Virus record (IMG/VR): IMGVR_UViG_3300036987_000515
Coordinates: 1-37,052 of that record
Reading direction: 5' to 3' (one strand)
Source of the DNA: a virus
Taxonomy: Duplodnaviria; Caudoviricetes
Length of the DNA stretch: 37,052 nucleotides
Position 1 is the stretch's first letter. The number at the start of each line of letters is the position of its first letter. Made by a program: the position numbers and the translations under genes. Shown piece after piece: positions 2,399 to 34,367 of this stretch. The notes beneath the pieces are model-generated. The model was not told where the DNA came from and searched no databases. It saw only the letters and a program-made list of their open reading frames with translations.

Positions 2399-5300
2399 TC
2401 AGTTCAGCCCGCCGCTGATGATCCCGCCCCGCAACCTCGCGCTCCAAACCCCGATTTCCATCACGGCGCGCCCGCCCACCGCGAACCGCACCGCCCCCGT
2501 CACCCCGACCTCCCCCGTATCCGTAATCCCGTTCGGCAACACCTCCGCGCCCAGGTCGGCTACGGTCACCAGGTCTCGAACCGGATGCGGGTTGACTCCG
2601 CCGTCATGAACCGCCCCGACGACCAGATCTCCACCGATCGTCAGCCAGGCAACCCGCTCTCGCGGCTCTCCCGGCCCCGCCAAGTCCCACCTGCGAAGGA
2701 AGAACAACAGCCGCCCCCCATCGTCCTCCGGCGTCCAGCGCAGACATTCGTTCTCAGGCACTCCGCCCAACTTCTCATACCCAAGCAGCGAGCTTCTGAG
2801 CAGCTTCAGCGACCCCTTCAGCCGCAGGTCACCCGTCCCTGTGAGCACCGCTACCCGCACTCCACTGATCACAAACTCAAACGCCTGGCCTCCCTGGATC
2901 GGCCGCACGAACGTCCCCGGCACCGCGATCGCCCCGCCGGCCGTCACGCCCTGCCAGTAGAACCTATCCGCCTGCGGCACCATCTGTACGGTCACGCTCC
3001 AGTGCGGTGCCGGCTGGTCTACCCGCGCCAGCGCCACAACCCGCCCTGGTGCCCCATAGCAGCCCGCCCGCGCCCGGTTCACCAGCACCGTGTCACACCG
3101 TTGCAGCGTCTCTCCCACCGATGGCGCCACCGCCACATCGGCATATTCCCAAAGTTGCAATGCCAGACTCAGGTAGTATTGCGCCAGGCCACTTACCCGC
3201 GCCTTCTGATCCTCGAACCCGCCAGCGTATCCACGCGCACTTTGGTGCCACATCAGGTTCCCGCTCGGCCGCGCTCTCATCCCATATCCCGCCGCCTGGC
3301 TATCCTCGTCCCGCGCCTCCATCGTCGCCCGGTAATCGCCAGTCCGCAGGTTGCGCCGGTAATAGAACATCACCTGGTTGAAAAACTCCTCCAGGCGCAC
3401 CTCCCGCGCAAAATCGTCCCTCAGCAGCAGCCGTTCCGATCCGCCCCCGTCACCGATTCCCGCCACCGCATCGCTCGCGTCTATCCAGGCACTGCCCCAC
3501 CGGCAAAAAAGCGTCCCCTGGTCAAACAGCAGCACCAGGCGCGATTCCCCCAGCAAGGCCGCCGTCAGATCTCGCAGCGTAATGTCCTCGATCACCCCCA
3601 AGGCCATTCGCCAGCCGGCTCCCTCAGCCTCTTCCCGCACCGCCTCAAAGCTCGCCGAATCCCGGTATGCCGCCATCCCAAAGTACTCCGGCGAGTCGAT
3701 CAGGTACGCCAGCAGATCCACCGGGTTCTCGAGCACCGTCACCGCTCCACCCCCTACCGGCGTCCCCGTTCGCCCGTCCACGTCTGCCACGATCGCCCCG
3801 TCCCACACCGTCTCCGCCGCGCCATAGTCCAATTCCAACGCCAGGCCAATCACTGCAAACTGTACCGGATCTCCGTTCGCCGGCAGGCTCAGCAGCACCT
3901 GCACGCCCCCCGTTGTCCCCGCCGGCGCCGCCTTGGTGAAGAAGGCCCACGGGTCCACGCCGGCTGTCCGGGCCCAATCCTGCGCGATCCTCCCCAGCGA
4001 GATCTCCTGCTCAAACACCTTGCTCGGAACATTGACGCCACTTACCGCGAAATAGCCCCCGCTCACCGTCGTGTCCGTATCCTGTCCCTCTGCTTGAGGG
4101 TCGTACTCAATATTGAGAACGAAGTTTGAAAACGAATTGCCACCCCAAACAGCATTCGGGCCAGACGGACTTGGGTCCGTTCGGAGATAGACTGCGGGGG
4201 AAAGTGTGATTTTAATCGCCTGAATCTTGCTCCATGACCACCCACCGGCAATCGTGCAAACCCCACTTGTGACGTTGCTGAAAAGCTGGTTATAGACGCG
4301 GGTAGCCATCCCAACGTCGCTAAAGAATTCGATCTGTACCGTGTTGGGTGTCCGATAGTTTTTGTACGCAGTCATTGACCACGTTACTGAGTTGATCTTG
4401 TCCTTCGACGTTGCTGCCGGAAGCGGACGGCTATTAACAAAAACCGGAGTCCTGCCAGAAAAAGGTTGCCCCGGCGAGGTCAGAACTTCTGCTGGTGCGT
4501 TGTTGAGATAGTCCCACGCACCGGAAAACCCGGTATCCACATTGCCGTCAAGCCCGGTTGCTACGGGAGAGGAATCCCCGGTTCTCCCGGGAGTGACGCA
4601 CGTTCCCCATGCAATCCCGCCTTCCGGACCACTCCAGTAGTAAGGTTCCGTTTTGTTCACCAAAAACGAGGTAAGAGTCTGCCGCTGAATTCCCCACCGG
4701 CTCCGCGGCAATGTCTGCGATCCGCTGATAGATCCACCAGCCGCGATTGCAGTCGGAGGTCGAATCACCCCCGACTTCAGCAGCGCGCCGCCCTTCCGCA
4801 CCTCGTAGTTCACCGCCGTAGTCGAATTCCGGTCATACTGCCCCGTTACCCGCAATCGCCCCCCCCGGAACTTCCCGAACAGCCGCCTCGGGTTCATCAG
4901 CCCCCCGTCCCAATGCGCATTGAAGATTGCATCAAAGACCCGGTCTGCCGCCGACGTTTTCATCACCGCCGCCTGCGCGCTCGCCGCGGGATCCAGCGCC
5001 AGGGGCAATTGTGCCACGAGGTTGCTCCCCATCCCCGGCCCCGCCTTCCAGCGCAGAAAACTCGTCGCCAGCGCGAACCCGGTCGTTGGATCGTAGGTCC
5101 CGTCCGTCTCAAGGATCCATTCCGAGGGAACCCCGCTCAGTCCCGTCGCGAACCGATCCGCACGCGGCCGACGCGCAAAATCCGCAACCGTGAAACTCTT
5201 CCCGGTCGCCGTCGTCAGCAGGCTCAACGTCGGAGCCTCGCCCAGCGGAGCCTCAACCTCATTATCATCCACCGATCGCACGTTGCTCATCCCCGCGATC

Positions 5301-6433
5301 GGCCCTGCAGCCACCACGTACCGGTATCGCGGTTGCCCGTCCGGTCCTACCGGGATCAGCCGCAACGCCGCCCCCTCGTCATGGTCACGCGCGGCCGTCG
5401 GCATTGCCCGCCCGCGCACGCAACCAGTAAGCGTGTTCCCCGTCCGCCCCCCGTACGAGATCACCTCACTGTCGATCAGCACCGTCCCCGACCCCGGCAA
5501 CGGCTGGCTCCCCCCCGTTGTCACGATCGAGGTCGCCCCCGCGCTCAGCGCTCCCGAGAGCGTCGTCTCCCGCCCCGTGTAGAGCTCCAGCACCACGGAG
5601 CCCGACGCATGTCCGGCCGCCGCCGTCGTCGGGAAACCCGTCCCCCTTCGGCATCCTGCCGATACGCTCCCAAGCCGTTTCCCCACCCGGTCGATCACCG
5701 GGTAGTACACCACCTCATCCCCGATCTCCAGGTACCCGCTATCCGGCCACAGCCGCAGATCCCCCTCGATCTCGAAAACCCCGTCCTGGTCATCCACTTC
5801 CGACGCCAGGTTTACCACCGGCCCCACGTCCACCGGCACAAGCGCCAGGCTGTCCACGCGCCCGAAAACCGGACCGCGCACCGCCCCATAGCTGTCGTGC
5901 GGAGCACGCGGCCAGTCCGCGTCCAGGATCGGCAAACCAACCGGCTTTTCCCCCGGCTGCAACGTCGCATCCACGCAATACAGCTCGCATTGATGCGTGC
6001 TCCATCGCGGCCGCTCCAGCCGGAACAACCCGTCCCATTTGATGTCCGCCTCGGAACCGCTCCCCACCAGGCGAACATCCAGAAAACCGATCCGAACCAG
6101 CACGTTCGTCAGCGGAACCCCGACCAGGATATCCTGCAACCGCGCCGGATCAGCCGATCCATCAGTCCGCTCCGGCGTGTTCAGCAGCATTATCGTTACA
6201 TCGTCATTCAGCGCTTCCCAACGCGAACCAGATAGATCCGCCCGCTTTGCCACCGACGCCCAGCTCCGCACCTTCGGCTCATAGACATGGCCCCCCAGTG
6301 TAAACGCGCGGTTCGCATAATATCGCCGCCCGATCGGAGCAGGCCAATCCACCCAAACCACACAGGCCAAATCCAATCCCAGCGACCCCGCGGCCGCCAG
6401 CCGGTCTCCCAATCCGCTGGATACCTCAAGCAT
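2399..6433 (-). CDS. Large tail tip/hub (host-specificity-like) protein
   Basis: ~1344 aa, two genes after tape measure; ATG at 6433 preferred over GTG 6448; duplicated GxxxIxxEVxxY..RG..TAAxxHxxG domain. Confidence 0.7.
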   Translation of the reverse strand: MLEVSSGLGDRLAAAGSLGLDLACVVWVDWPAPIGRRYYANRAFTLGGHVYEPKVRSWASVAKRADLSGSRWEALNDDVTIMLLNTPERTDGSADPARLQDILVGVPLTNVLVRIGFLDVRLVGSGSEADIKWDGLFRLERPRWSTHQCELYCVDATLQPGEKPVGLPILDADWPRAPHDSYGAVRGPVFGRVDSLALVPVDVGPVVNLASEVDDQDGVFEIEGDLRLWPDSGYLEIGDEVVYYPVIDRVGKRLGSVSAGCRRGTGFPTTAAAGHASGSVVLELYTGRETTLSGALSAGATSIVTTGGSQPLPGSGTVLIDSEVISYGGRTGNTLTGCVRGRAMPTAARDHDEGAALRLIPVGPDGQPRYRYVVAAGPIAGMSNVRSVDDNEVEAPLGEAPTLSLLTTATGKSFTVADFARRPRADRFATGLSGVPSEWILETDGTYDPTTGFALATSFLRWKAGPGMGSNLVAQLPLALDPAASAQAAVMKTSAADRVFDAIFNAHWDGGLMNPRRLFGKFRGGRLRVTGQYDRNSTTAVNYEVRKGGALLKSGVIRPPTAIAAGGSISGSQTLPRSRWGIQRQTLTSFLVNKTEPYYWSGPEGGIAWGTCVTPGRTGDSSPVATGLDGNVDTGFSGAWDYLNNAPAEVLTSPGQPFSGRTPVFVNSRPLPAATSKDKINSVTWSMTAYKNYRTPNTVQIEFFSDVGMATRVYNQLFSNVTSGVCTIAGGWSWSKIQAIKITLSPAVYLRTDPSPSGPNAVWGGNSFSNFVLNIEYDPQAEGQDTDTTVSGGYFAVSGVNVPSKVFEQEISLGRIAQDWARTAGVDPWAFFTKAAPAGTTGGVQVLLSLPANGDPVQFAVIGLALELDYGAAETVWDGAIVADVDGRTGTPVGGGAVTVLENPVDLLAYLIDSPEYFGMAAYRDSASFEAVREEAEGAGWRMALGVIEDITLRDLTAALLGESRLVLLFDQGTLFCRWGSAWIDASDAVAGIGDGGGSERLLLRDDFAREVRLEEFFNQVMFYYRRNLRTGDYRATMEARDEDSQAAGYGMRARPSGNLMWHQSARGYAGGFEDQKARVSGLAQYYLSLALQLWEYADVAVAPSVGETLQRCDTVLVNRARAGCYGAPGRVVALARVDQPAPHWSVTVQMVPQADRFYWQGVTAGGAIAVPGTFVRPIQGGQAFEFVISGVRVAVLTGTGDLRLKGSLKLLRSSLLGYEKLGGVPENECLRWTPEDDGGRLLFFLRRWDLAGPGEPRERVAWLTIGGDLVVGAVHDGGVNPHPVRDLVTVADLGAEVLPNGITDTGEVGVTGAVRFAVGGRAVMEIGVWSARLRGGIISGGLN

Positions 6434-10412: not shown

Positions 10413-10457
10413 ATCCGTTCCTGATATCTGAAATCTGAGATCAAAAAAGCCCCGCCC
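10413..10457 (-). repeat. Intergenic element copy 1 (GGGCGGGGC-T6-GATCTCAGATTTCAGA..) after tail tube gene
   Basis: Near-identical to 13570-13622. Confidence 0.85.
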
Positions 10458-13569: not shown

Positions 13570-13622
13570 ATCCGTTCCTGAAATCTGGAATCTGAAATCT
13601 GAGATCAAAAAACGCCCCGCCC
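13570..13622 (-). repeat. Intergenic element copy 2 after major capsid gene
   Basis: GGGCGGGGCG-T6-GATCTCAGATTTCAGATTCCAGATTTCAGGAACGGAT; one more heptamer than copy 1. Confidence 0.85.
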
Positions 13623-15568: not shown

Positions 15569-16246
15569 ATCGTCCTCACCTCCTTCCTCATGTCGTGTGT
15601 CAAATCCCGCGGCAAAACCGACCGCGCGCCGCCGAACCTTGCTCCCCGGTTTCCAGCTCGCGCTTATCCGCGTAGCCTTCGCACCGAACCGAACGTCCGG
15701 CAGCGGAACCTCCGTCTGCGTGCCCCCGTGGTAGGCCACCCGCGTCAGCGTCCAACCCTTCTTCCCGTGCCAGTCGTTCACTGCCTCGATCGAGATCTTC
15801 GGGTAACGCCGCTCGTTGACATAATAGACCAAATCCCAGGCGATGTCACGGAATTGCGCCTCAAGGTAGTCTCCGTTCACACGCAACGCCCGCACCCACG
15901 CCAGAGCTGGCGCCTCGAACGTCTCATCCGGGTTCTCACGGCTGTGCCCGACCGTCGCCGGAACATCCGGGTCGCTATCCCCGAAGTTCCGAACCAACTG
16001 GTCCAGCTCGTCACGCGTCCATTCCCGGCCGTGCCACGTCCCCGCCCGAAACACCGGCACCCAGGTCATCTCCCGCCGCTGCTTTGCCTGCTCCTCGTCT
16101 GCAACCACTTCCTCGATCAGCGTCACCGCCGCACCTCCGTCCCCGGCTCCCGGGCATTCAATCGTCGTGCCCCGTCTGTCGATCGCAGCGGCCAGCAGAG
16201 ATACAGGCTCAAACATATCAATGCCAGGATAAGCACGATCATGCAT
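15041..16246 (-). CDS. Prohead protease/scaffold (Mu gpI-like)
   Basis: VFRAGTW, VGHS, APALAWV, RYPKISIE motifs; start may be 16216. Confidence 0.85.
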   Translation of the reverse strand: MHDRAYPGIDMFEPVSLLAAAIDRRGTTIECPGAGDGGAAVTLIEEVVADEEQAKQRREMTWVPVFRAGTWHGREWTRDELDQLVRNFGDSDPDVPATVGHSRENPDETFEAPALAWVRALRVNGDYLEAQFRDIAWDLVYYVNERRYPKISIEAVNDWHGKKGWTLTRVAYHGGTQTEVPLPDVRFGAKATRISASWKPGSKVRRRAVGFAAGFDTRHEEGGEDDMGPKEIQAMIAAELKKAEPEIIEKFKRSKEYQQVAQRASQAKKLQNESVLQKFAAKVAKCGTFVKELFAAKRITPATANHPGLAAFMASLDDQDKVKFTADQEQTQLGFFEDLLGGLGSAKSLFTKVDDEEERDGEGVDGAIAKFAADHGLDPKLVEKEYRKLAAKGRQDGDDDE

Positions 16247-16315
16247 TCCCCCAAAACATCTTCAGGATTCCGTTTCCCCATCGTATTCACCTGCGCCTTC
16301 CTACCGCGATTTCTT

Positions 16316-16333
16316 GGGACACGCGGGAGACGC
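16316..16333. repeat. 18-bp motif GGGACACGCGGGAGACGC, inverted copy of 23710-23727
   Basis: Exact reverse complement; both copies intergenic. Confidence 0.9.
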
Positions 16334-16354
16334 ACGGCTTCGATTACCCGAGAC

Positions 16355-16382
16355 TACAATGCCATCCTAACATCCTTGTCAA
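16355..16382 (-). promoter_or_regulatory. Candidate internal late promoter upstream of protease gene
   Basis: Perfect TTGACA (16382-16377); -10 unclear; position analogous to Mu PI. Confidence 0.35.
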
Positions 16383-16394
16383 TACCCCGAAATC

Positions 16395-18869
16395 TCAAAG
16401 CCCCAAACCACGGAAACCGTCGCTCCCGCGAAACTCCCGCGGGTTGCGCTCCGACCCGTCGCCCAACCGCACCGTCTGCGGCAACGTCGCCGCCGCCCAC
16501 GCATCGTAAACGCCAAGCTCTTTCATCGATCCCACCGACAGCGGGATCAGGTCGCAACGGCAGTTGTAATCCCAGGGGGGAGTGATACGATCCCAGACTG
16601 GATCCTCACGGTCCGCCACGAATCCATGCAACGCCGCATGAGTCTCGCGCGTCCTGTCATCCAGGATCGCGATGTACTGATACGCCGGGAAGCCCTCCTT
16701 GATGTCCGGATCGTTCAACGCCAACTGACGCCCCGCGCCATATGCACGCATCGTCTCCGTCCGGAACATCGTCTCCACCTGCCAGGGAGACTTCCCCTCA
16801 AGGCCCCATTCGGACGTCATCGCCGCCCATTCCGATTGCCATTCTGCCAGCGTCCGGCCTTCCCGCAGGAAGTCACCGATACGCTCCTGGATCCTCGTCA
16901 GCAGCTCCCGCGATTCCACGTCAGCCACCGTGAAGCTCCGCGCCCGCGCTTCTGCCGCCAGTTGCTCCAGGTCGCTCTCCGTCAACGGCACAAGGTCCAG
17001 GAACCACCGGATCGCCTGTTCCGGAGTCACCGGCTCCCAATCCGCAATCACCCCGGCCCGCATCCGCTCCCGCCCGCCTTTGACACTCCGCGTCCGCTCA
17101 TCGCCGCGTTTTTCGTGCACGTGCACGTGCACCTGCACGCCCTCATCCTCTAACTTGGCGCTGGCCCCGGCTCCGCCCACCCAACGCATCACATGCGCCG
17201 CGCCCAGGCAAAGTGCCCCCGTCTTCGCCGTCGCAAATGCCTCCGTCAGCGCGTCGACGCCTGCCCTCTCCGCTTTCATCCGCTCGATTCGAAGCGCCAG
17301 CTCTGCCAGCGACCCGGCCGCTGCCGCCTCGCCCTTCACACCGGAGAGGAGTGCCCGCACCGCACCCGCGCCCATCGTCACGATCCGCGCAAACACACCG
17401 TCCATCTCCCGACGCCGCCGCCGCGCCTCGGTCATCGCCCCCGCCGCCACCGCAAATTTCACCCGCCGGACCCCTTCACCACAATTCCGTCCATCGCGTC
17501 CTCGATGTCCATTGTGTCCATTATGTCCATCGCGCCCGCGCATCCGGGCGCCCATCCCAACCCCGGCCGCATTCGGCCCCCATCCACCGCCCCAGCCGAC
17601 GCCACTGCCGCCGCTCACCACCTCGTCATCGGACGCGGGCATCGGACGCTTATACTTCTCATAGAAGTACCACCGCGGCAATTCCAGGCCCAGCCCGACC
17701 AGCCACGAGTCCAGCTCCAGCTCTGCCTGCAAATCCTTCGACTCATAGTCGATCGTCCAGATCGGCAGCGGCAACCCGGCGCCAAAATTCAGTTCCACCA
17801 GCGGACGCACCAGCTGGCCGTTTACCACCTCCATCAGCGCCCGCGCGTCACCCTCCACGAATTCCTGCTTCACGTCCGCATGCGTTTGCGCCTGGCTATA
17901 GGTGCCCGTCCCCGTCGTCGCCTGCCCCGTCGCCAACGATTGACCCGTCAACGCCTCGCTCATGCACCGGTCGCACCAGCTCACGAACCGGTCATAGGTG
18001 TCGGTCGCCCCCTGGCGCTGCGCCTCGAGCAGATCCACGGTTAGGTTCTCCGGCATCACGATCGCATACTCGCTCTGGATCATCCGGAGCGCTGCCTTCA
18101 ACTTCTTCTGTTCCTCCTCGGTCGCGTTCGGCGGATACTTGCCAACCGCCGTCGGCTGCCCCCACTTCTCCGAAAAGATCGCCCACCATTTCACGAAATT
18201 GTGTTTCAGCCACCAGGTCCAGAACAGCTCGCTCGCCTCGCTGGTCCCATACTGGTTCTCATTCTCGGGCGAATGGCTGAACACCACGAACTTGAACGCG
18301 GGAACCTCCTGCCACTTCGTCGGCTCCGGAGAATATCGCAGGCTCCCGTCCGCCGCAAAACCGAACCGCCCCTGCCGCCGTTGACGCAACTCCACCGGCA
18401 CCCATGCAGTCCGGCTCCCGCCCGAGTATATCAGGTCACGCTCCTCCCAAAGGATCTCGGCTACCGAGAAACCCACAGGAATTGCGTCCATCAGCTCCAG
18501 GAGGTCGCGCCACCACCCCGAGATACCCGCCACCGCCGCGCTCACGAAATCCGCCAGTTCCTGCGCGCGCTCCGGATCCGGATCGTCCGCGTTCGGCACC
18601 ACGCGCATTCCCTTGCTCAAGACGCCCATTTTGCGAGTGCGGATCAGGCTCTTCAGCTTCGCGTCGCTGGTCCGCATTCGGCGATATAACGAGTAGCAGT
18701 CCGTCACCGAACGCCCGTCCGTACCCAGCTTCGAAGGAGCGATCACCGTCAGGATCTCGTCATCCAGCGGCAGGATCCCGCCACCCATGCCACCCGTCAT
18801 CATCCGCAGCGAATCATCGCCCATCGATGCGATTTCGACCGTCAAATCCGCTTTCTTCACCGAACCCAT
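16395..18869 (-). CDS. Portal (Mu gp29/DUF935-like) fused to minor head protein (Mu gpF-like)
   Basis: LMDAIPVGFSVAEILW, FSEKWGQPTAVGKY; C-terminal YQYIAILDDRTRETHAALHG..PPWDYNCRC. Confidence 0.9.
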   Translation of the reverse strand: MGSVKKADLTVEIASMGDDSLRMMTGGMGGGILPLDDEILTVIAPSKLGTDGRSVTDCYSLYRRMRTSDAKLKSLIRTRKMGVLSKGMRVVPNADDPDPERAQELADFVSAAVAGISGWWRDLLELMDAIPVGFSVAEILWEERDLIYSGGSRTAWVPVELRQRRQGRFGFAADGSLRYSPEPTKWQEVPAFKFVVFSHSPENENQYGTSEASELFWTWWLKHNFVKWWAIFSEKWGQPTAVGKYPPNATEEEQKKLKAALRMIQSEYAIVMPENLTVDLLEAQRQGATDTYDRFVSWCDRCMSEALTGQSLATGQATTGTGTYSQAQTHADVKQEFVEGDARALMEVVNGQLVRPLVELNFGAGLPLPIWTIDYESKDLQAELELDSWLVGLGLELPRWYFYEKYKRPMPASDDEVVSGGSGVGWGGGWGPNAAGVGMGARMRGRDGHNGHNGHRGRDGRNCGEGVRRVKFAVAAGAMTEARRRRREMDGVFARIVTMGAGAVRALLSGVKGEAAAAGSLAELALRIERMKAERAGVDALTEAFATAKTGALCLGAAHVMRWVGGAGASAKLEDEGVQVHVHVHEKRGDERTRSVKGGRERMRAGVIADWEPVTPEQAIRWFLDLVPLTESDLEQLAAEARARSFTVADVESRELLTRIQERIGDFLREGRTLAEWQSEWAAMTSEWGLEGKSPWQVETMFRTETMRAYGAGRQLALNDPDIKEGFPAYQYIAILDDRTRETHAALHGFVADREDPVWDRITPPWDYNCRCDLIPLSVGSMKELGVYDAWAAATLPQTVRLGDGSERNPREFRGSDGFRGLGL

Positions 18870-21648: not shown

Positions 21649-22590
21649 TCAAACACCATAGGCCAGCATACGATATGTCCGCCCATGCACCACACCGATC
21701 CCGTTCACGATCGCACCCTTGCGCGACCGCACATCCTCGCGCAGCCGAACCGGTCGCCCCGACGACGCCATACGGTCCAGGACACGCCGGATCACCATCC
21801 AAGCCTTCTCCCGTTCCGATAGCAGCCGGTTCCCCCCGAACAGATCCGCCAGTTCGCCGACAGCCGACGAACCCAAACCCCCGTTCTGAACCGCAAGATC
21901 GAACATCAACAGCCGGATCCGTAGATTGGCAGACACGCCGAATAGCCGCGCGCAATCGTCCTGCGATCTGTCCCAATACCGCTTGCGCGCCAGCCCGCAC
22001 TGCAAGTCGATCATCGCCGGCTCGTCGCCCAGGGCGCGGAGAAAACGGCTCACGCAACCCCTGACCCGCCCACCCTCCAGCGCAAAACGCCCGAAGTCCC
22101 CACGCAAGGAAACCCGGTCCATTGCCTTGATCAGGACATCCCGGTCTGCACCGCTCTCGTCGAGACAGAGTCCAAACTCCGCAGGAGCCCGGTCGCGCAT
22201 CTGCCGCGCCAAATCCTGAAGCTCCCCGTTGTAACTCGTGAAACCCACGATCCCATAGGTGACACCCGCGTCATCTCCCGTGTTCGCCGGCCCGCACGCC
22301 CCCCCGAAACCCGTCCCCTCAAACTCCGATACCACGTTCAACGACCGCTCAAATTCGTCAGGCCAGGGAACCTGCAGCGCCTCGAACTCAGGCTGTCCCG
22401 CCTGACCGTCCCCGGGAAGCCCCACCCGCCTTTGTGCCTCGCATATTGCCGACGCTGTCTTGCCCCCGAAGTCCCCGTCCACCGTCAGCCCGGCACCCGT
22501 CCGCGCATTCAACGTATCCTGCAACCGCCTCACGACAAAACCGCTGCTGCCCCTTCCATACGCCAGGTCAATCCGTTGCGTTTCCGACAT
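21649..22590 (-). CDS. Endolysin: peptidoglycan-binding domain plus lysozyme/chitosanase-like domain
   Basis: GSSGFVVRRLQDTL..VDGDFGGKT..Q..GLPGDG; SEFEG..GDDAGVTYGIVGFT. Confidence 0.88.
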   Translation of the reverse strand: MSETQRIDLAYGRGSSGFVVRRLQDTLNARTGAGLTVDGDFGGKTASAICEAQRRVGLPGDGQAGQPEFEALQVPWPDEFERSLNVVSEFEGTGFGGACGPANTGDDAGVTYGIVGFTSYNGELQDLARQMRDRAPAEFGLCLDESGADRDVLIKAMDRVSLRGDFGRFALEGGRVRGCVSRFLRALGDEPAMIDLQCGLARKRYWDRSQDDCARLFGVSANLRIRLLMFDLAVQNGGLGSSAVGELADLFGGNRLLSEREKAWMVIRRVLDRMASSGRPVRLREDVRSRKGAIVNGIGVVHGRTYRMLAYGV

Positions 22591-22803: not shown

Positions 22804-23190
22804 TCAATTCCTGCTCGGATGCGCCTGCCGCCGCAAAAGCGCCACGCGTTCATCCTCAAGCTTCAAACGCCTGCGATGATAACTCGCCTGGTTGTTCAAC
22901 CCGAACCAGCCAAGCACCGTCAGCACCGCCGCCGTCACGTACTGACCCCACGTAAATTCCGGAGTCGCATATTTCACCAGGGCTTCACCGATGATCAAAA
23001 CCAGCGCGCCAATGTTCTGCGGAGTCAGCCATTCCAGCCCCACGCTCCCGAACCCGCGAAACCTCAGACGCTTCCGCAGAATCCCGCCGCCTCCACCCAG
23101 CGCCAGGACCAGCAGCGGGAACGGCAAAAACATGAACCCCACCAGCAAAACCCCCACAATCAGCCCCCCCGCCAACTCGATCAGTCCCAT
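22804..23190 (-). CDS. Putative holin
   Basis: 3-4 hydrophobic segments, basic C-terminus, upstream of endolysin. Confidence 0.6.
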   Translation of the reverse strand: MGLIELAGGLIVGVLLVGFMFLPFPLLVLALGGGGGILRKRLRFRGFGSVGLEWLTPQNIGALVLIIGEALVKYATPEFTWGQYVTAAVLTVLGWFGLNNQASYHRRRLKLEDERVALLRRQAHPSRN

Positions 23191-23238
23191 CTGCTTTTCT
23201 CCTGCATTTTCTCTGCCCGCCCGGCAAAACCTGCCCCC

Positions 23239-23278
23239 AAAAATCGGAAACGGGAGGCGGCCGCCGCGCCACCTCCCG
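23239..23278 (-). terminator. Terminator-like hairpin T2 before holin
   Basis: CGGGAGGTGG..CCGCCTCCCG then TTTCCGATTTTT. Confidence 0.5.
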
Positions 23279-23372
23279 CCGGTCCCGAATCACGGTGCCT
23301 GCGCACCGGTCGCTGCCTCAGCCCTGCAATCTGTATTTTCATCGCTCGAACTCGTCTGGCCTCAGCGTCGGG

Positions 23373-23417
23373 AAAAAACTTGACGCGGGCAGCGGTGGGG
23401 GAGTACCGCCGCCCGCG
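23373..23417 (-). terminator. Intrinsic terminator T1 after lipoprotein gene
   Basis: 13-bp stem CGCGGGCGGCGGT/ACCGCTGCCCGCG then TCAAG-T6. Confidence 0.7.
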
Positions 23418-23454: not shown

Positions 23455-23604
23455 TTACTTGGCTACCGGACACGCGGATGGCGTAACCACCACCCGGGCA
23501 TCGGCAGGCTTCCCGGCATCGCCGCCGCCAAGCCACGAACAACCCGCCAGCGCGAAGATCGCCAGAACCGCCACGATCAAAACCATGATTCCCACGTGTT
23601 TCAT
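23455..23604 (-). CDS. 49-aa lipoprotein
   Basis: MKHVGIMVLIVAVLAIFALAG-C lipobox; RBS GAGGAGG. Confidence 0.75.
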   Translation of the reverse strand: MKHVGIMVLIVAVLAIFALAGCSWLGGGDAGKPADARVVVTPSACPVAK

Positions 23605-23643
23605 GCGTCCAATGCCTCCTCGCCCCAAACCCCGGAAATTTTC

Positions 23644-23688
23644 AACGGGAGGCTCCGCCGGGCGGGGCGTCAAGCGGAGCCCCCGTTT
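23644..23688 (-). promoter_or_regulatory. Leader hairpin with 15-nt loop
   Basis: AACGGGGGCTCCGC / TTGACGCCCCGCCCG / GCGGAGCCTCCCGTT. Confidence 0.65.
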
Positions 23689-23837
23689 CCACTTGGAAGA
23701 TGCCGTCGGGCGTCTCCCGCGTGTCCCGCACATACCTGCCCCCCTCCCACCCCCAAACGCAAACCGCCGCGCACACGTTGGCACAAAATGAGAAGCCGAC
23801 CGGACCCTCCCAAAAACCCCAATTCAACCCAAAAAAC

Positions 23838-23949
23838 GGCTTGTGTGACATGTCACACAAACGCTAACTATAGCAATCACAACACTCAATGGGCTTATTC
23901 GTTCACATGGCAACAGTTTTTTGCCCCAGTGTGACATGTCACACAAGCC
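23838..23949 (-). promoter_or_regulatory. Candidate late promoter flanked by two palindromic operators
   Basis: TTGTGTGACATGTCACACAA (23841-23860) and GTGTGACATGTCACAC (23929-23944); extended -10 TGCTATAGT at 23875-23867. Confidence 0.7.
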
Positions 23950-32921: not shown

Positions 32922-33534
32922 GATACTCAAATCATCACGGATCGTACCGGATCCGCTACCCAGGATCGAATCAATCGATCAGTGCGACGAGGCAATGTTG
33001 CGCATCGGACGGGTCGGACGCGAAATCGCCCGCCTCGAAGCTGCCCAGAACGACGAGATCGCCGTCGTCCGGAAGAAGCACGCAGCCCCGCTTGCCGCCC
33101 TCGCAGCAGAACGCGACGAACTGGACCGCAACATCATCGCCTTCGAGACATATCACCGCGAAACACTCTTCGCCGGTGAACAGAAGTCGCGCGTCCTGAC
33201 CTATGGAACGCTCAACTTGCGGCGGATCCCGCCGTTCGTGGAACTCGTACGCTCCAAGATCGACCGCATCGCGGAGATCAAGGAACGCTTCGTCAAGTCC
33301 ATCCGCGAGAAACTCATCCGCGTCAAGGAAGAGGTCTCCAAGGAGGGCATCCTCGACCATGCCCGCGCCCTCGAGGGAAAACGTCTGAAGGAGTTCGAGG
33401 ACCAGCTCGCCCTCTGCTCTCTCCGCATCGTCCGCGACGACGAAACCTTTGGCTACAACCTCCACGAGGACGAAATCGCGAAGCATCTGGCTGCCAGGCC
33501 GACCGTCATCACGGTTGCAAAGGGCGCAAAATGA
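32914..33534 (+). CDS. gam: Host-nuclease inhibitor Gam-like protein
   Basis: IESIDQCDEAMLRIG..coiled coil..KSRVLTYGTLNLR..IRVKEEVSKEGI. Confidence 0.88.
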   Translation: MAKILKSSRIVPDPLPRIESIDQCDEAMLRIGRVGREIARLEAAQNDEIAVVRKKHAAPLAALAAERDELDRNIIAFETYHRETLFAGEQKSRVLTYGTLNLRRIPPFVELVRSKIDRIAEIKERFVKSIREKLIRVKEEVSKEGILDHARALEGKRLKEFEDQLALCSLRIVRDDETFGYNLHEDEIAKHLAARPTVITVAKGAK

Positions 33535-34367
33535 CCAGGGCTGATCTCACACCCAGACAGTACGGCTGCCGGCCCGACGTCGAGGATCCGCGCGACAAAA
33601 TCTATGGCGTCCCCACCAGGGTTATCCTCCCGAAGACGGCGGATCTGCGTCTGCGCCTTGCGCCTGTCCCGGTCGAGGATCAGGGCCAGATCGGGTCATG
33701 CACCGCCAACGCATGGGCAACCGTCATGGAATACCTCCGGATCCGCGACGGACGCAACCCGCATCTCGATCAGTCACGACTGTTCATCTACTATAATGAG
33801 CGGATGATCGAGGGAACAGTCGATCAGGACGCCGGCGCGCAAATCCGGTCCGGAGCCAAAGTGCTCGCCAAGTACGGCGTCTGCCCAGAGGCTCTCTGGC
33901 CATATGAGGATGAACGCCTCATCAGGAAACCGGCCGACGACTGCTACATCCAGGCGCTCGGATTCCGCGCAATCGCGTATCGACGGGTCCGATCGCTCTA
34001 CGAACTGAAACACGCGCTCGCCAGCGGCTTGCCGGTGGCCATCGGAATCGCCGTCTACGAATCGTTCGAATCTGCGATGGTTGCCAAGACCGGCGATGTG
34101 CCGATGCCCAACCGCGGCTGGGTTTGCAGGGAATCGCTACTCGGATGGCATGCTGTCACCGCGGTCGGGTATAACGACCTCGAGCGGAAAATCATCTGCC
34201 GCAACTCCTGGGGCGCCTCCTGGGGACGCGCCGGACATTTCTTCCTGTCCTATGAGTACATTCTGGATCCAAGCCTCTCTGGCGACTTCTGGACCTGCAC
34301 CCAAACGTCCCTTGATGCGGTTGCCATGAACGCAGATCCGGAAAGCGAGGAACCGATCAATGTCTGA
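33531..34367 (+). CDS. Papain-family (C1A) cysteine peptidase
   Basis: DQGQIGSCTANA, SRLFIYYNER, GWHAV, CRNSWGASWG; all catalytic residues present. Confidence 0.95.
   Translation: MTRADLTPRQYGCRPDVEDPRDKIYGVPTRVILPKTADLRLRLAPVPVEDQGQIGSCTANAWATVMEYLRIRDGRNPHLDQSRLFIYYNERMIEGTVDQDAGAQIRSGAKVLAKYGVCPEALWPYEDERLIRKPADDCYIQALGFRAIAYRRVRSLYELKHALASGLPVAIGIAVYESFESAMVAKTGDVPMPNRGWVCRESLLGWHAVTAVGYNDLERKIICRNSWGASWGRAGHFFLSYEYILDPSLSGDFWTCTQTSLDAVAMNADPESEEPINV

Follow-up and report, generated by a model that had tools for sequence, protein, structure and literature searches.

Does the untranslated leader of a late phage operon act, as RNA, on distant sites of the operon that it heads? The question arises at the late leader of a phage from a small family of uncultured Mu-like phages, whose complete virus record, 37,052 nt long, was analysed as a whole and is called the window here. 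A sequence-only reading of this DNA had proposed pairing between the leader and distant sites of the late operon. This proposal gained from a changed version of the pair, which was predicted for a related prophage and then found there, and from computed binding that is confined to cognate partners, but it does not extend to every relative, since one of them (G076) keeps the leader without a distal target.

The phage is placed among the Mu-like phages by Pfam and family matches among the ORFs scanned (Portal_Mu/Mu F, GemA, Gam and a TniB-like ATPase). Its late genes occupy the minus strand, where a holin-like gene at 23190 is followed in order by terminase, portal, protease, capsid, tail tube and tape measure. 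In Mu-like phages, late genes are usually viewed as controlled from several promoters by activator proteins; none of the window ORFs that were scanned matched a Mor/C-type activator. A single 824-aa ORF (16395-18869) combines portal and Mu gpF-like domains, the early region holds a papain-family peptidase ORF (33531-34367), and the endolysin-like protein (21649-22590), whose only Pfam match is to a peptidoglycan-binding domain, has full-length homologues (E<1e-50) in 9 of 75 genomes of the Sumerlaeota. Capsid matches among GenBank phages were all below 60%, the best being about 30% among the matches listed. Window DNA is contained in 13 public runs from groundwater and coal metagenomes, and contigs from four of these 13 show no substitution between 10000 and 24600.

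The nearest named relative (capsid 46% identical) is a prophage, G001, in the metagenome-assembled genome of BRC1 bacterium HGW-BRC1-1, phylum Sumerlaeota, and a host in that phylum is therefore likely for the window phage as well. The leader and the head genes of G001 lie on two non-overlapping contigs (L122 and L105), which we assign to a single prophage since the portal gene is cut at the end of one and at the start of the other. Alignment scans yielded L105, two further family contigs (L166, from the IMG/VR phage G076, and the 2.7-kb L113, from a fourth phage) and the distant relative L208. IMG/VR scans with single proteins returned only identical copies and distant capsids, two IMG/VR motif scans gave 6 and 9 matches with none near family proteins, and the capsid is present in one of the 75 Sumerlaeota genomes. 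About ten more family proteins are encoded by contigs that reach 39 kb in length. Of three additional contigs, two (L154 and L155) are absent from the family-protein listing. Intergenic and even coding stretches of this family are padded with tandem filler repeats of 7-10 nt that differ from phage to phage (window 13294-13338, 13554-13600 and 26329-26383, and gaps in L105, L122 and L166), and assemblies break there.

The leader is organised around two elements, alpha and beta, followed by a small ORF and two terminator-like hairpins ahead of the holin-like gene (Table 1). Such a hairpin with a U tract precedes the holin gene in all three phages with leader sequence (window, G001 and G076), in G001 and G076 as a complete canonical terminator. 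The leader RNA may begin near 23727 rather than at 23860; the proposed short RNA would measure about 160-360 nt if it started near alpha and up to 489 nt from 23860. The small lipoprotein-like ORF has no Pfam match, and G001 carries no counterpart at the same place. No Rfam family was matched at gathering score in six sources totalling 87,897 bases, with sub-threshold hits only.

Table 1. Features of the late leader and of its candidate partner sites in the window
Feature	Position	Strand	Remarks
Twin palindrome	23944-23929	-	about 70 nt from the first copy
Candidate extended -10	23875-23867	-	putative promoter element
20-bp palindrome	23860-23841	-	overlaps the candidate extended -10 on its downstream side
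Alpha, the "key"	23702..23727	-	18-mer 23727-23710 plus five more pairing bases, 23706-23702
Alpha hairpin	23695..23718	-	predicted; second half of the 18-mer is the 5' arm, first half a 5' extension
Beta hairpin	23644..23687	-	predicted stem; 15-nt C-rich loop 23673-23659
49-aa lipoprotein-like ORF	23455..23604	-	hydrophobic stretch and LAGC; inside the leader RNA
T1	23373..23417	-	13-pair hairpin 23417-23384, 5-nt gap, U6 at 23378-23373
T2	23239..23280	-	second hairpin and U5 tract ahead of the holin-like gene
Small hairpin with G-rich loop	23214..23228	-	10-nt complement to the beta loop's 3' side
Portal-gene beta complement	16726..16736	-	11 nt, no U tract; probably chance
Candidate internal promoter	16351..16382	-	putative; TTGACA 16382-16377, TAnnnT hexamers 16369-16364 and 16356-16351
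"Lock"	16289..16338	-	predicted fold; alpha target forms hairpin 5' arm and loop
52-aa membrane ORF	16123..16281	-	behind the lock; stop overlaps GTG at 16126 in the protease/scaffold frame
Post-capsid half terminator	13607..13622	-	beta complement, then U6; no local 5' arm
Post-tail-tube half terminator	10443..10457	-	beta complement, then U6; no local 5' arm

Several smaller features accompany this layout. The two perfect palindromes of 16-20 bp that flank the candidate -10 (23929-23949 and 23838-23860) resemble operators of a dimeric regulator, and the palindrome was found nowhere else in the window, in L122 of G001 or in G076. A divergent HTH_3 gene lies just upstream of the G001 leader (L122:4909-5361) and an ORF occupies the equivalent place in G076 (L166, about 5595-5828); the window has none between 23860 and 24084. 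A repeat of G076 (L166:3726-3752 and 4497-4523) shares its final 14 nt with the run-up to alpha and may mark a shared promoter or binding motif. The small hairpin at 23214-23228 is identical over 15 nt in G001, with related motifs in G076, and in all three phages its G-rich-loop motif (window 23228-23214; L122:5709-5725; L166:6590-6640) complements an invariant CCCGG of the beta loop, a contact that might form a pseudoknot or a kissing interaction within the leader.

The centre of the proposal is the 18-nt complement between alpha and the region upstream of the protease/scaffold gene, and it is exact as described: 23727-23710 complements 16333-16316. After a 3-nt bulge the duplex continues for five more pairs (23706-23702 with 16338-16334). 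It is alpha's best duplex on the late strand, at -50.6 kcal/mol against -34.8 for the next best, and the longest exact inverted match between sites at least 100 nt apart in the window (18 nt; runner-up 14). Markov genomes produced an exact inverted pair of at least 18 nt in 5 of 600 cases. Real phage loci of 14-22 kb gave a less favourable comparison: 11 of 79 deduplicated loci (99 originally) contain such a pair, one of them an N-run artefact, which leaves 10 of 78 other phage loci, several of the positives being filler or palindromic repeats by eye. The 18-mer had been thought hard to dismiss; with equal-length matches in 10 of 78 other loci it is weak evidence alone, and we rejected it as stand-alone proof.

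Two trivial origins of the 18-mer were also rejected. An assembly artefact is contradicted by contigs of run X6, which carry both copies without a differing letter, and by run X5, which spans the target copy. A dispersed REP-like repeat of the host, which the sequence-only reading itself had named as a danger to its idea, finds no support in the likely host phylum: alpha has no exact copy in the 75 genomes of G001's phylum and 42 near copies, at most five per genome, against 64 for a reversed control. In G001 the corresponding 14-mer matches exactly only at its two phage sites. Alpha is predicted to fold as a small hairpin in the window, G001 and G076 alike. In the window it resembles a tandem 9-mer and has a 10-nt cis partner (23477-23468) within the lipoprotein-like ORF, a pairing that appears in the predicted fold.

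Stronger evidence comes from G001. On its head contig, one 21-nt motif occurs twice, in the protease gap and directly after the capsid gene, and is unlike the target of the window. The complement that the G001 leader would have to carry was predicted from this motif and then found at L122:5615-5631, ahead of the holin homologue and directly before a hairpin with a C-rich loop. This alpha forms 11 exact pairs, a one-base bulge and five more pairs, with 22-23 intermolecular pairs predicted for the duplex. A complement of at least 11 nt arose in a 451-nt window in 23 of 5000 Markov sequences and in 1 of 144 real windows, the position before the beta hairpin being left uncounted. How many pairs are compensatory depends on the alignment register: two in the 9-pair core under alignment of the alpha hairpins, five with the 18-mers set end to end. 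Only two complete key-lock pairs exist, and the covariation therefore rests on this single comparison.

The computed binding energies separate the two pairs. The window key binds its own lock at -24.9 kcal/mol and the G001 protease lock at -2.5, the G001 key its own lock at -17.7 and the window lock at -2.5 kcal/mol. Whole short RNAs keep the preference in these computations (cognate versus non-cognate, -14.0 versus -6.0 and -12.8 versus -3.6 kcal/mol), which is nearly gone for the long 489-nt RNA of the window (-15.5 for the G001 lock versus -17.4 for its own).

What alpha would pair with is not an open stretch but part of a predicted hairpin. All four alpha target sites (the window protease gap, the two G001 motifs and a post-capsid motif of L113) fold computationally as hairpins whose loop contains the complement of alpha's 5' end. 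The 3' arm of the window lock (16308-16289) covers the Shine-Dalgarno sequence AGGTG at 16292-16288, and the layout recurs in G001 at L105:1016-1055 and 4271-4318; three of the four hairpins are thus predicted to bury the Shine-Dalgarno sequence of the next ORF and to offer a toehold in the loop, and that of L113 does not. Holding the target single-stranded makes the start region cheaper to open in these computations: 10.8 falls to 3.9 kcal/mol in the window, 7.2 to 3.5 in the G001 protease gap and 11.5 to 5.2 after the G001 capsid gene, with no change in L113 (7.1 to 7.0). The hairpins are stronger on the coding than on the opposite strand in three cases (by 3.4, 1.3 and 5.1) and equal in L113. 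Among 16 starts scored in the window, the locked one is the second most closed, after the overlap-coupled adaptor start (11.6).

Behind the lock lies a small membrane ORF whose stop overlaps the start of the protease/scaffold gene, assigned by a protease family match; the overlap is present in all three phages (ATGA in G001, TGATG in G076). Overlapping stop and start codons are the usual sign of translational coupling. Candidate -10 hexamers stand 13-17 nt ahead of the lock in the window and in G001, and a scan for consensus promoters did not flag a promoter ahead of the window lock. Mu itself has an internal late promoter ahead of its protease gene. The 9-nt alpha core that G001 and G076 share recurs without a single change in the 3' arm of the window lock (16301-16293), while the window alpha has drifted from it; this identity is possibly a trace of the origin of the lock.

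From the complementarity, its changed counterpart in G001 and these predicted folds we propose, at about even chances, that the leader is an IsrK-like terminated small RNA that activates translation of head genes. The late leader would yield a short terminated RNA with alpha as its 5' segment. Alpha would nucleate on the loop of the lock 7.4 kb downstream and displace the arm over the Shine-Dalgarno sequence, and the freed ribosome-binding site would allow translation of the small membrane ORF and, by coupling, of protease/scaffold. A putative internal promoter may feed the locked transcript, on which the RNA would act in trans. Head genes would in this way stay silent until the late promoter fires, with head-gene translation from a leaky internal promoter tied to the firing of the late one. 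Two points weigh on the proposal. In the T1-ended RNA of the window the alpha toehold is computed to be paired in cis, at 7.9 kcal/mol to open, which counts against free action of alpha unless translation or processing releases the toehold. After the G001 capsid gene, alpha binding would also abut a U7 tract, an outcome opposite to activation.

The other relatives delimit the system. G076 (endolysin 40%, portal 46%) shares the leader layout, and its alpha homologue takes the corresponding position (L166:6350-6367); this alpha binds the G001 locks at a computed -11.8 and -12.7 kcal/mol and has a potential local partner at L166:6440-6450. The 30.5 kb of G076, which cover holin to tail fibre, hold no distal alpha complement on the coding strand. 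Its pre-protease ORF directly follows the portal stop and has an open start (2.8 kcal/mol) without a lock, in line with the model; alpha must have some role without a distal lock, because G076 keeps the one without the other. The post-capsid motif of L113 is nearly complementary to the key of G001 and G076, and the G001 key binds it at a computed -21.1 kcal/mol. L208 carries neither key nor lock. Distal targets are thus present in two of the three phages with leader sequence and in one more fragment, and absent from L208. As far as these sequences go, the system appears to be conserved with changed sequence in one relative and absent in another.

We further investigated the beta loop, for which the sequence-only reading had given short complements just before U tracts. 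The matches are as claimed: 23670-23660 complements 13622-13612 after the capsid gene (11 nt), 23668-23660 complements 10457-10449 after the tail-tube gene (9 nt), and 23674-23667 complements 23386-23379, directly ahead of the U6 of T1. The last pairing is marginal, with a duplex of -9.2 kcal/mol against 6.4 for opening the loop. The sequence-only reading had cautioned that matches of 8-11 nt could be chance; GGGCGGGGC occurs three times where 2.5 are expected, and only its position is unusual. The statement that all targets are intergenic was too broad, given the 11-nt beta complement in the portal gene and the 10-nt alpha partner in the small leader ORF. The portal-gene site (16736-16726) is even beta's best duplex by energy, with the tube site ranking 13th and T1 outside the top 25; with its best duplex in a coding region, beta was rejected as energetically specific.

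Position is where beta stands out. The late coding strand has 16 tracts of at least five U, and the three that abut a beta complement of at least 8 nt are the three intergenic U6 tracts. Only 14 of 25,581 coding-strand 19-mers reach two or more distant tracts, all of them overlapping the beta loop; shuffled loops reach three tracts in 3 of 5000 cases and two or more in 98 of 5000. Three of 79 other loci pass the same test, whose cut-offs were chosen after the sites had been seen; all three have a GC content of at most 0.33 and 66-122 tracts, and no GC-rich locus passes. The capsid and tube sites are not independent, because both are copies of one repeat of about 60 nt. According to the part of the source available, a canonical intrinsic terminator needs a local hairpin abutting its U tract (PMC3993855). 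At neither the post-capsid nor the post-tube site does a local stem reach the U tract within 45 nt upstream.

The beta loop might, as a second function of the leader RNA, supply the missing 5' arm of these half terminators, so that accumulating RNA would reduce read-through into low-copy genes. We hold this tentatively and think it rather unlikely. A somewhat more doubtful idea is that one RNA sets virion stoichiometry, combining a toehold key with a loop that completes split terminators after the capsid gene, after the tail-tube gene and at its own 3' end. The beta loops of G001 and G076 have a long stem and a C-rich loop at the same place and no U-tract partner of at least 8 nt in the sequence available, which excludes the G001 tube region; the G001 tail-tube gene was not found with the query used. 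The G001 alpha echoes the geometry of the window sites: it pairs 2 nt ahead of the post-capsid U7 (computed nascent binding -23.2 kcal/mol) and, with nine pairs including one G-U, ahead of a post-holin U8 that has its own local arm. The stretch after the G001 holin gene (L122:6125-6241) consists of stacked hairpins, the last of them a terminator; its loop measures 22 nt and its 3' arm is able to form nine pairs with alpha. No Rfam family matches this stretch. In L208, an ordinary terminator has the G-rich 10-mer of the window sites as one of its arms; arms of this kind are therefore commonplace, and the sites in the window could be worn terminators.

These observations raise the alternative that the leader works chiefly by termination in trans, its segments providing the 5' arm of intrinsic terminators that have their 3' arm and U tract after highly expressed genes. 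The three U6 tracts abutting beta complements, two of them without a local arm, speak for it, as do the failure of every GC-rich locus among the 79 to pass the U-tract test and the two U tracts next to alpha pairing in G001. Yarnell and Roberts are reported to have obtained oligo-triggered release at U tracts in 1999. RNA oligonucleotides are only moderately slowed in their annealing inside the exit channel, compared with free solution, according to the available part of one study (PMC8632103). We nevertheless consider this improbable, as neither protease-gap target nor that of L113 has a tract of at least five U, the beta loops of G001 and G076 find no partner of 8 nt or more in the sequence available, the G001 post-holin site has its own arm, beta's energetically best duplex is coding, and the capsid and tube sites are two copies of a single element. 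The pairing is symmetric, and it could equally be read in reverse, with head and tail transcripts binding the nascent leader to set read-through of T1 and T2 into lysis, terminase and portal genes, or acting as sponges of the leader RNA. An occupied beta loop could not complete T1, and alpha has cis partners in the window and G076. Against this, the pre-holin terminators of G001 and G076 are complete and need no help, the pairing at T1 is marginal, and it is the targets, not the key, that are built as Shine-Dalgarno locks; we regard the reverse direction as very unlikely.

An alpha duplex of 16-23 pairs could also be a substrate for RNase III-type cleavage, with a rise in translation following the cut. 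RNase III-type enzymes accept duplexes of about this length, and the 18 + 5 pairs of the window and the 22-23 predicted pairs of G001 are within range. Against this, a bulge interrupts the G001 duplex after 11 pairs, the beta duplexes are too short, and cleavage alone would need neither a loop toehold nor a buried Shine-Dalgarno sequence, which makes this account a distant one. Alpha might instead be a DNA site copied in inverted form, for protein binding or recombination, that co-evolves with a phage protein without any RNA pairing, the beta matches being worn terminators. Its persistence in G076 without a target, its likeness to a tandem 9-mer in the window, the frequency of long inverted matches in phage loci and the shared arm of the L208 terminator all suit such a site. 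The indel of one base in the middle of the G001 pair and the 3-nt bulge of the window pair do not, nor do the hairpins at all four targets, three of them stronger on the coding strand. Contigs of four runs, which drop rare variants, show no strand-switch joint at the 18-mers, and the 75 genomes of G001's phylum hold no exact copy and fewer near copies than the reversed control (42 versus 64). As regards an invertible segment with gix-like sites, for which a flipped form and a cognate recombinase would be expected, these contigs gave no joint and the scanned ORFs no invertase match. We judge a pure DNA site to be an outside chance, comparable with trans termination as the main job, and return to translational activation by a terminated leader RNA as the preferred reading.

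If this activation is true, it adds an RNA layer over virion assembly, and the naturally orthogonal key-lock pairs would be usable as parts. A terminator with its 5' arm encoded at a distance of 10-13 kb would, if true, be a new kind of natural control element. To our knowledge, completion of an intrinsic terminator by RNA in trans is known only from oligonucleotide experiments, and the half terminators offer a clean test case for it. Sequences of less than 400 nt, in E. coli or in vitro, would suffice to test both ideas without culture of phage or host. The earlier statement that no described Mu-like equivalent was known agrees with the literature searched, which covered few subscription papers and yielded no paper on such a Mu-like system or on natural split terminators. 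The available part of a 2025 review of phage small RNAs lists none that activates the phage's own head genes (PMC12197685).

Among known systems, IsrK of the Salmonella prophage Gifsy-1 is the closest in design: in the portion of the source available, it is a terminated leader RNA that exposes a buried ribosome-binding site, and the ORF behind this site is translationally coupled to the gene that follows (PMC4825925). The RNA proposed here would share with it a short terminated leader that acts in trans on the phage's own transcript and destabilises a helix hiding a ribosome-binding site. By fold and sequence, a complement to such a helix ahead of a coupled ORF is carried by the window and G001, not by G076. 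The IsrK target, as that same portion describes it, is part of the read-through transcript of IsrK itself, no more than 180 nt from its start, and regulates an antirepressor (PMC4825925), whereas targets in the present system are 7 kb or more away, can occur in repeated copies and stand ahead of virion genes, without sequence likeness or an Rfam match. The main targets of the window lie 7.4 kb off, ahead of head genes, and not in a read-through leader. StxS of Shiga-toxin phages arises when a late transcript is ended early, represses stx1AB and, in the host, activates rpoS; it depends on Hfq and is given as unnecessary for phage propagation, according to the accessible part of its description (PMC7547250). 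The proposed leader RNA would resemble it as the terminated 5' end of a late transcript; StxS likewise pairs with an mRNA from the late genes of its phage and has a second mRNA that it activates. StxS belongs to lambdoid phages under Q control, unlike this Mu-like gene set, in which no scanned ORF matched the Q family and activation of the phage's own head genes is predicted. With distant virion-gene targets, no lambdoid Q context and no Rfam match, the leader is a member of neither the IsrK nor the StxS family.

Leader-derived RNAs with several partners are known from immunity control. The P4 CI RNA pairs with several sites of its own transcript and causes termination, in the part of the account available (PMC4825925), and the C4 RNA of P1 and P7 likewise pairs with sites of its own transcript, in the part available of the review (PMC12197685). 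Both differ from the leader studied here in that they serve immunity with targets beside the RNA gene, in place of a late operon, and the leader has no Rfam match. By analogy, the P4 CI RNA would be the nearest precedent for the termination branch; its termination is Rho-dependent and does not proceed by completion of a hairpin at a U tract. The key-lock architecture itself has been engineered, as toehold and loop-initiated RNA switches in which a hairpin hiding the ribosome-binding site is opened from a toehold by strand displacement, with orthogonal key-lock pairs. These switches, like oligo-triggered release, in which the duplex next to a U tract is provided from outside, are laboratory constructs, whereas the system of the window would be natural and encoded in a genome.
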